The notes under the pieces: generated by a model
The model's database searches: none
The model's input: the letters and a program-made list of their open reading frames with translations, nothing else
What the model was told of the DNA's origin: nothing
DNA from: Saccostrea echinata
Lineage: Eukaryota
Direction of reading: 5' to 3'
DNA length: 64,000 nucleotides
Assembly (NCBI RefSeq): GCF_033153115.1
Contig: NW_026889754.1
Span: 12,586,001-12,650,000 of the forward strand
Translations under genes and position numbers: made by a program
Part shown: one piece after another, positions 50,379-53,106 of the stretch
Layout: the number at the start of each line of letters is the position of its first letter
Numbering within the stretch: the stretch's first letter is position 1

Positions 50379-53106
50379 CTAAGACCGTATGCCGGCCCCC
50401 CCGTCGCCACGGGGAGTTTCCTCTTTGTCTGCTTGCCGACGGGGGGGGGGTGTCTCGTCCAACTCGAACAGTTCCATAGTTAGCCTCATGTCCGTGGTAG
50501 CTGGTCTATTGGGGGCGTGAAACATCCCTCGATGGGGGAGCTCAGTCCTTCGCTTGATGGGAAGTCGGCATGACAACCCCATCTTCCGCTTTAAAAAGCG
50601 GAAGAGGAGACCCATGAGAAGGCCACACACCAGTAAAAAACTGGTGATGCCCAACCCAAATGCTGCGTCCACTGAAAAATTTGTAAAATATATATTAATC
50701 ACAGTTTTTTGTATACCTTACGTAATATTAACCAATATTTATAATCGTTTATCTGGGAAAAAAAAATTAAAAAATAAAAAAAAAGTAAGAAAAAACCTTG
50801 TATCAATTTCTTTTATACATTTATAATCGTTTATCTGGAAAAAAATCTTTAAAAAAAAAAGAAAGTTAGAAAAATCCTTGTATCAATTTCTTTTATACAT
50901 TTTGATTTCATGCTTTGAAATTTTCCTTTAAATCAGAAATCAAAAAATATCAATTTACAAATAAATATACAAATACTCACTTTAAGACGGCATTTCTCAC
51001 ATGCAGCATGCAATTGATAAAATCATTTTTAACAAAGATATTAGTAACATTAATTGAAAAACACCTGTAAACATACTCTTTTGTTTTTATTATTATTTTA
51101 TAAAACATGCTTCTGTTAAATATTGAGAGGAGGTGTCCTTGGAACGAATGTTTTATTTAATACCTAGTGTGAATAAAGAACATTATTTACTACACTGCAG
51201 ATACGTATTCGTATACTGTTTCGTCATCGCTCTCATTGTCATTCTCATAGTTTGTAATCGTCTCTAAATTTAAATCATGAATGATGGTTTCTTTCCTTTG
51301 GTTATATTTTAATATACATATGCACGCTAAAATAAATATAGGAATGACTAGTAATATGTAAAGATACATGAAACGTCCATGCTTAGTACCCCGGGTGTCA
51401 TCTGCTGAATTGCCCCTGGTCGTCACGCCCTCCGTGGTGTTGATGTCCTCAATTGTACTCGTGATAGGGGAACTGGATGTCGTGGACTTTTCAGTCGTAT
51501 GGTCATTAGATCTAGTTGAGTGTATGCGGGAACTGTATAATGTTGACTGAGGGTGTAATGATGATATAACAGAAGAGGGTATTATTGTCTTTCTCTGATG
51601 ATATGTGGCGGTGTGGGGGGTGAAAGTGGTGATTGAATATGCGTGTGGGTATGTCGTCAATAATTCCGGGGTAGATGAATGCATTGCAGGGTGGGTCGTC
51701 ATCTTTTGGTATGTAAATGTCAATGGCGAGGACGAGGGGTTTGATAGGTCGGTTGACGTCACAGTGTATGAAGACTGCATACGAGTTGAAGAGACATAGT
51801 AATCTGGAGAAATGGTGTGTTCACGAATGTCAGTATCTAAAGTTAATAAAACAACAATCTGAAATCATCTCAATTCTTATAAATAATTGAGTCACAAAGT
51901 TTCAACGCAAAACGTAACACATTTAAAAAAAAAACAAACAAACAAACAAACTTTACGCATAAAAACATTTTTTAGATCAACAAATTAAAAAGAAAATTAA
52001 CAAAAAGAAAATCAAGTTAAATATTGGGGGGGGGGGGGCATAACGGAGTGGCAACAAAACAAAACTCAATATATCTGTAGAAATTCTCCTCTAAATGATG
52101 GATATGTTTTACTTATTTTTTTTTAAAGTTAAATTCATAAACACGGAATATTGCATTTGATTTATCATTTTTCAGAATTTCTACAGATCAGTGCACAACA
52201 CGAATGAACTCACGTTCTTCTAGATCCAAGGTAGTGCCAGTGGTCGACGCCGATGAAGTCATTTCTATACAAATACAGATAAAAAAATTCCACTAATTAT
52301 TTTTTTTCTTTACCTTGGTAATAAATAAAAATATTTTACTCTTTTCTTCATACCTTCGCAAATCTTTTTTGCTCGCCCAAGCTCGAATACTGTCTGGCAG
52401 ACCATGCCGGTGACAAAGCGCAATTACATTAAATTGACAGTAAGCGGAGTTTTCTCACGTTTTCAATTTTGTTTGATCATCAGTTTCCATGAGGCACAGT
52501 GCAGGTAGCTGTATCAAATTACGCTTTGTCATCACTTCACCCAAGTAACGGCGCAGATAGAAAACTATGTCACGTTCACCTTTTCTCTTTTTTAGGATAC
52601 GTCCCCCCCCCCCCTTTTATTCTTATAAATTGTAAGGTAGTTAATTACAGAGTTTTAAGAGATATTATAATTATACGTGAGTTATAAACAATACATATTC
52701 GATGAATATATATTTTTTAACACTTAAATGATAGAGTGCATCTCAATATCTGAAACGATTCATTCATTAAAAAAATTTTAAAAAATAAAAATTCCCAAAA
52801 CCCTTATTTACCTGTACAGGTAAATTTCTCGCCCGAGTCCAACATGAGGATAGACTTGACTCTGTCCTGGCAAAATCTCTTGTAGTTCTCTATTGGACAA
52901 TTTCCTTTAATCAATAGTTGTTCTATGGGGGACCATAACCGGATTTTCTCGATCCAACAGTTCACCTGTACAACTCTACCTGAATACACACAGGCCTCCT
53001 CCCCAGGACACTCGGCAAAATCCAAAGAATATGTGCATTCCTGAGATAGATCGCACCCATAGATGAAAGAAGTGGTCATCAACCATAAAATAATACCTAA
53101 TGCCAT
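50379..53106 (-). CDS. Spliced membrane-glycoprotein locus, copy B (intact exons)
   Basis: Exons A 52812-53106, B 52354-52405, C 52214-52264, D 51190-51836, E 50379-50671; all junctions GT-AG, phase 1, and conserved in copy A. Confidence 0.8.

Follow-up and report, generated by a model that had tools for sequence, protein, structure and literature searches.

A Polinton-borne gene of the oyster Saccostrea echinata probably encodes several spliced surface proteins

A 64,000-nucleotide stretch of the Saccostrea echinata genome (hereafter the window) contains a Polinton that very probably bears, as cargo, a gene giving rise to multiple isoforms. On balance, we favour the view that this is an accessory gene of a Polinton lineage, probably one of oysters, the spliced isoforms of which would display a cysteine-rich domain and alter host immune signalling. 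Taken by itself, a surface role with immune modulation is proposed by analogy and is put forward tentatively. For animal Polintons, an infectious viral nature is still in question and little work exists on the accessory genes; a conserved, spliced and fast-diverging family of surface or secreted proteins is the cargo expected of a virus facing host immunity. The homologues found in four farmed or wild oyster species, together with RNA-like spliced contigs, provide a handle on Polinton-host interaction. ORF-based annotation of Polintons misses intron-rich accessory genes of this kind.

The element, its cargo gene and related copies

The TIR arms of the element (33183-33411 and 56111-56339) are 229 nt long and 99% identical. 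Its gene set comprises pPolB, an integrase with a chromodomain, a DJR capsid, adenain, an A32 ATPase, BIR and PC4. Pfam profiles scored above the cut-off for pPolB (DNA_pol_B_2), the integrase (rve and Chromo) and adenain (Peptidase_C5), the ATPase (Pox_A32) and DJR-like capsid matches being below it, and the minor capsid was assigned from its position only. A near-full sister copy (C33:27170320-27193175), about 95% identical over 22.7 kb, has both TIRs and its own TSD. All the hallmarks of Polintons were found, namely TIRs with AGTAGT/ACTACT termini, a 6-bp TSD matching at both ends, core genes, a locus placed between the TIRs and co-movement; the TIRs, TSD, core genes and sister element bear out the statement of a first-pass annotation that the locus lies in a Polinton. 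The cargo locus is held in the 9-kb region between pPolB and the right TIR, which has 31.6% GC against 46.6% in the core.

The same element harbours a BIR (IAP-like) gene and a double PC4 gene (36102-36644 and 35115-35624). A second, diverged Polinton occupies positions 216-12719, with a major capsid 55% identical and frameshifted core genes; its TIR is at C5:12577140, some 9 kb to the left of the window. Also present in the window are a 436/437-nt tandem repeat array (20982-24263), an rva_4 integrase-like element (58381-59681) and a GDSL/zinc-knuckle ORF typical of retrotransposon ORF1 (60072-61586). Among 460 candidates, of which 96 were scored, Polinton capsid genes are concentrated on contigs C5, C33, C6, C36 and C40.

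Table 1. Coordinates of the features discussed, as positions in the window
Feature	Position	Strand	Description
Polinton (Maverick) element containing the cargo locus	33183..56339	.	23 kb; TIRs, TSD, core genes
Exon A	52812..53106	-	295 nt, ATG, 8 Cys, phase-1 donor
CSL/RBPJ-like motif CGTGAGAA	52452..52459	-	54 nt upstream of the ATG of B
Exon B	52354..52405	-	M-x-C...C-x, ATG, phase-1 donor, in-frame stop upstream
Exon C	52214..52264	-	51 nt, phase 1/1, short Ser/Thr linker
Exon D	51190..51836	-	Stalk, predicted TM about 51366-51310, acidic Tyr-containing tail, stop
Internal phase-1 donor in D	51384..51390	-	Inferred, after 51390 (51390|51389); would allow stalk-to-E splicing
Exon E	50379..50671	-	Predicted TM, basic/Pro-rich tail, stop
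Second spliced gene, head-to-head with exon A	53642..55330	+	About 11 small exons, all phase 2
Second window copy of the locus	15302..17978	+	In truncated piece 13405-20356; no TIR found beside the piece

The product of exon A begins with a hydrophobic N-terminus, predicted by eye to be a signal peptide of about residues 1-17, which is followed by an 81-aa domain with eight Cys; the position of its donor is kept in diverged homologues. The stalk encoded by D is 148 aa long with 41% Ser/Thr, and the ectodomain has one NxT sequon in D and none in A or E. The predicted TM segments reach hydropathy peaks of 2.9 (D) and 2.2 (E), and an AATAAA lies downstream of D at 51091 and of E at 50246. All junctions of the locus are phase 1. 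The earlier calls of A as an ATG-bearing, Cys-rich exon, of a symmetric 51-nt C, of D and E and of the junction phase hold in the sequence.

Smaller features accompany these exons. In most close copies, read-through of the A donor (52804-52812, reverse strand) brings in a stop two codons later, and retention of intron 1 would yield a secreted A-only protein; this stop is not conserved in distant families. At the end of the D tail is a Tyr motif (51190-51215, reverse strand), with similar ends in several close copies and not in distant families; we take this motif to resemble ITSM/ITIM and the D terminus to resemble a class I PDZ-binding end. Downstream of E (about 48950-49100, reverse strand), third-position-biased differences between copies point to a possible further small exon or ORF.

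The second copy in the window belongs to a piece adjoining the diverged Polinton. The same layout had been announced for it and holds in part: exon A of this copy is frameshifted by 1 nt near 15406, and its B is a 57-nt cassette entered through a phase-1 acceptor. Exon A gave 33 matches in the 923-Mb genome (pieces of broken copies counted separately), and the matches of searches from two distant members were confined to the same contigs. When grouped by similarity, the loci form seven families, with an exon A 29-48% identical to that of the 50379-53106 copy. The A-B-C-D layout and a C-like exon are present in all seven and an E-like exon in six, and core genes or a TIR-like end accompany the locus in one or more members of every family. 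Five elements share a major capsid of at least 97% identity; in all of them the locus keeps one orientation relative to the capsid gene, at a distance of 12.1-12.9 kb. Of 31 loci, 29 were examined for neighbouring genes: a Polinton core gene lies within 20 kb of 18 (one of them weak), and none was found in the flanking DNA examined at the other 11, two of which lie close to a TIR-like end. Frameshifts or stops interrupt A, D or E in many copies, and one tandem duplicate of the cargo gene was observed (C5:10181743 and C5:10187009). This multicopy family, linked to Polinton elements, is not an ordinary single-copy host gene lying outside them.

Substitutions were compared between the element at 33183-56339 and the near-identical C33:27.19 element, with small site counts throughout. 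Cargo exons diverge faster than core genes: pN in exon A is 0.045, against 0.002-0.016 in six core genes and 0.022 in pPolB, and pS reaches 0.44 at the start of E (13/30) and 0.45 in B (5/11), against 0.00-0.02 in the six core genes, 0.14 in pPolB and 0.01-0.06 in introns. In both E and B, pN (0.09 and 0.12, respectively) is below pS. The pattern suggests an exon-sized exchange between element lineages. Between sister elements, the pS of 0.08-0.14 in pPolB (42612-47093) exceeds the 0.00-0.07 of other core genes and suggests a mosaic polymerase.

Splicing, alternative ends and a possible alternative start

Splicing was assessed on contigs of eight runs, and junctions were obtained from one of these, run X2, which is presumed to be RNA and probably derives from other copies or a related species. 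One X2 contig joins 52214 to 50671, that is C to E, with GT-AG ends, at a depth of 2.4 and with 30 nt on the short side; one contig ends at the A donor with a 19-nt loose end that is the exact start of C. Many contigs run through the introns of the locus, and no C-D, D-E, A-B or B-first junction of the 50379-53106 family is among the contig matches listed for the eight runs. In an X4 contig, about 70 unaligned letters are joined to a C variant, which is compatible with a B-C junction.

Word-based protein searches returned one protein only and an HMM search 35 relatives; two of the 20 clusters of these relatives that were examined contained named oyster proteins. The RefSeq homologues (XP_062587208.1, XP_052693585.1, XP_065937352.1, XP_065937354.1 and XP_022309836.1) come from four oyster species and are annotated as uncharacterized host genes; a search for literature naming their three LOC ids found none. 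Among database proteins, the nearest homologue is XP_062587208.1 of Saccostrea cucullata, with 84% identity over exon A. With exons assigned by eye, this model reads A-C-D(TM), the C. virginica model (XP_022309836.1) A-C-E and the M. angulata model A-C-D ending without a TM, while the M. gigas models are A-C-D-E (transcript model X2) or have a longer D part before E (X1). The match to exon E in the models checked has an E-value of 2e-5, and the Logan protein P0051 also continues from D into E.

Given the A-C and C-E junctions in X2 and the differing 3' halves of the RefSeq models, more than one product is very probably made. The idea of a single fixed transcript does not withstand these differing 3' ends, and the proposal that one locus gives several membrane proteins is supported by the A-C and C-E junctions, the RefSeq 3' ends and the linkage to elements. 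Exon C had been thought optional; it is included in both X2 junctions and in all five RefSeq models, which lend no support to its skipping. Exon B occurs in none of the five, and a search based on exon A cannot retrieve B-first forms.

Exons D and E had both been regarded as terminal exons with a TM and a stop. Their stops and hydrophobic segments stand, whereas D is probably not solely terminal, a candidate internal phase-1 donor having been missed. A phase-1 G|GT precedes the TM motif by 12-15 residues in 14 of 15 D-TM exons and lies at the end of all four TM-less D exons (two families); for comparison, GGT makes up 24 of the 86 Gly codons of pPolB. This pattern was spotted before the RefSeq models were compared, and the M. 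gigas model XP_065937354.1 (X2) leaves D for E at an apparently equivalent point, judged by eye. From the internal G|GT, this model and the AATAAA after both D and E, we consider it likely that D is a composite exon, either read through as a terminal exon or spliced onward to E.

The lack of an acceptor reported for B is true of the 50379-53106 copy, where there is no AG between the upstream in-frame stop and the ATG; this copy is one of four without an acceptor among the ten close copies that contain B. The other six, including the one at 15302-17978, have an acceptor and a 57-nt cassette (one with an extra base), and two of these six have Ile for Met at the start of B. A B-like exon is present in 27 of 35 loci; its ATG precedes the first Cys by two codons in 25 of these 27, and a permissive in-frame AG lies upstream in only 14; a reading of B as a mere cassette without its former acceptor was revised given these counts. 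An origin of B as a duplicate of the last codons of A was also considered and dropped (p 0.086).

The introns upstream of B have one recurrently alignable part, a CSL/RBPJ-like motif. In an unbiased 8-mer count, GTGRGAAA was found in 7/7 family representatives, 53-109 nt before the ATG of B, compared with a best shuffled count of 4-6/7 in 40 shuffles and 4-5/7 in four control regions; the exact CGTGRGAA was found in six of the seven, against at most 1 in 2000 shuffles, and YRTGRGAA within 170 nt upstream of B in 22 of 27 loci, for a background of 0.026 per window, these statistics applying to families that share descent and to a motif that was first spotted by eye and contains GTGAGA, which also resembles a splice donor. 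The motif agrees with the RBPJ matrices cgTGGGaa and gTGGGaaa in the available part of PMC3656114, the 50379-53106 copy having the GTGAGAA variant. Judged from its sequence, it is likely to be a candidate internal promoter element. We take the GTGAGAA variant to be accepted by CSL.

On account of the conserved ATG (25/27) and the upstream motif (7/7), B is likely also an alternative start, and the existence of transcripts with B as an alternative first coding exon seems to us slightly more credible than their absence. The claim that either A or B comes first is thus supported by the A-C junction for A, and indirectly by the conserved ATG and the motif for B, no B-first transcript having been seen.

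Possible roles of the products

AlphaFold (AF2) gave a confident model of the 81-aa mature domain A (pLDDT 90.4, pTM 0.82), made of short strands and one helix. The Foldseek comparison suggested at the outset gave no significant match in PDB or BFVD. No Pfam family was found for exon A (matches of exon D were sub-threshold and generic), no PDB match by sequence, and no relative in viral and metagenome contigs searched with a single protein. The best Z-scores of a VIA structure search were 4.3-4.5, none reaching 5, which shows neither novelty nor an absence of relatives; an Atlas search gave no usable feature match, and its structure rows were all below threshold. Immunoglobulin and leucine-rich folds were considered specifically. 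One Ig_2 match (E 0.049) occurred in 1 of 19 members, with no CR1/Ig among the matches listed. The N-terminus of TLR5 (Z 3.5-3.7, rmsd 4.0, 71-72 aligned) was tied with unrelated folds, LRRC25 gave a below-threshold TM of 0.46, and there was no Pfam LRR match. As modelled, domain A would be a small beta/alpha domain without a clear structural match.

In the proposed mechanism, alternative splicing would generate several products presenting one Cys-rich domain at the cell surface. The A-C-E form would have a short stalk and the E anchor, read-through of D a long mucin-like stalk, the D anchor and an acidic Tyr-containing tail, and A-C-D spliced to E the long stalk with the E anchor, whereas A-C-D with a TM-less D is predicted to be secreted. 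The choice between D read-through and D-to-E splicing could follow the style of the IgM switch, the internal donor competing with the proximal poly(A) site. The CSL/RBPJ-like site of intron 1 may act in a second promoter from which B replaces A, and the resulting short forms would be devoid of the signal peptide and of the binding domain. By analogy with E3/49K, as presented in the part of PMC13437282 that was available, domain A would bind a host protein and thereby alter host immune signalling.

The same gene structure could serve against other viruses or sister Polintons, through receptor interference or superinfection exclusion. The deep, exon-sized divergence within otherwise near-identical elements fits competition between element types, and an antiviral role for membrane proteins of protist polisuviruses has been put forward in the accessible text of 10.64898/2026.10.13.758929; a host arms race fits this divergence too, and no link to a receptor or virus was found. 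We hold this use to be unlikely. Somewhat more doubtful still is a host membrane-protein gene captured once and now passive or domesticated, with extra isoforms produced by leaky splicing and B a decaying cassette. Such a history would agree with the host-like AT-rich introns (31.6% vs 46.6% GC), the 11 of 29 loci without nearby core genes, the many broken copies, the missing B acceptor in 4/10 close copies and the capture of intron-containing cargo known, from partly available sources, in nematode Mavericks. Against it, the matches of three genome searches all fall on seven contigs, six of which are listed with capsid genes at least 76% identical and the last (C61) with one of 49% identity; these searches identified no parent gene standing outside the elements; and the layout, the ATG of B and the motif are retained where protein identity has fallen to about 30%, with pN<pS in B and E.

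It is very improbable that Polinton particles are enveloped and that the gene supplies their envelope or attachment protein. Nematode Mavericks encode a fusogen with a signal peptide and TM, and an adintovirus is mentioned as having candidate envelope glycoproteins, both according to sources available in part; however, at 81 aa the domain falls far short of MFUS-1 (866 aa), the listed matches include neither a fusogen nor a viral protein, no further ORF with a TM and at least 100 aa was noticed in the element, and secreted and headless forms are unexpected for an envelope protein. We tentatively retain immune modulation by a surface-displayed domain as the preferred reading.

Adjacent to exon A, a second, head-to-head gene has exons of 81, 42, 12, 36, 33, 33, 33 and 84 nt among others. 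Its splice sites are kept in four aligned copies, up to the end of the second window copy, and junction contigs of run X2 lie near 53819-53922 and from 53963 to the 12-nt exon. The predicted product is short and disordered, with a Cys motif, basic patches and presumably a SIM-like stretch; in this copy, the penultimate exon contains a stop. The Cys exon of the gene has weak homologues upstream of distant family members. A bolder and improbable extension would combine both genes into an adenovirus-style early region beside the TIR, in which a bidirectional cassette of a micro-exon regulator gene and a surface-protein gene of new fold, a Notch/CSL-responsive internal promoter and an IgM-like switch give membrane, secreted and headless forms in an exon-swapping arms race. 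If true, Polintons would act as host-manipulating viruses rather than plain transposons.

Comparison with known systems

The immunoglobulin mu switch relies on a composite exon in which splicing from an internal donor competes with reading on into a nearby stop and poly(A) site. It belongs to a host gene of unrelated sequence, and the oyster read-through differs in often giving a second TM anchor and not a secreted tail. In adenovirus E3, splicing gives access to separate ORFs and is not known to join one ectodomain to alternative coding exons. The portion of PMC13437282 available to us presents E3/49K (CR1-beta) as a type I glycoprotein with a disordered linker, encoded, in a related virus group, within an accessory region that is variable; E3/49K also has sorting motifs in its tail and exists in membrane and soluble forms, the latter produced by shedding. 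The oyster gene likewise lies in an accessory region, and its predicted products would resemble E3/49K in these respects apart from the shedding. Its CR1 domains are Ig-like (PMC13437282), against the small beta/alpha fold predicted for domain A, and with no homology found, the label "adenovirus E3-like" can be kept as an analogy only.

Closer precedents exist in nematode Mavericks, which, in the accessible part of 10.1101/2022.07.12.499685, have intron-bearing cargo (wosp/wasp, krma) and the signal-peptide/TM fusogen MFUS-1. As in the oyster element, genes with introns reside in a variable region by the TIR while core genes are intronless. The nematode cargo is high-GC and located between TIR and integrase, whereas the oyster cargo is AT-rich and located between pPolB and TIR. 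The nematode proteins are proteases, kinases and a gB-like fusogen, whereas the oyster gene is alternatively spliced and encodes a small, predicted surface protein; the comparison revealed no homology between them. MFUS-1 (class III) has a gB-like ectodomain and about 860-866 aa, compared with 413 aa, mostly Ser/Thr stalk, in the longest oyster model. In view of these precedents, the oyster cargo is less unexpected than had been claimed (10.1101/2022.07.12.499685, available in part).

Our literature coverage, incomplete and without supplements or Repbase entries, revealed no alternatively spliced surface-protein gene in a Polinton, and the present gene, as read from its sequence, would be a cargo variant not previously described. 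The vertebrate Mavericks, as far as the accessible text of PMC8097293 describes them, share with the oyster element the (AGT)2//(ACT)2 ends, the 6-bp TSD, the core genes and accessory regions flanking the core; genes of the intact vertebrate elements are without introns in that text, whereas the oyster cargo gene is spliced.
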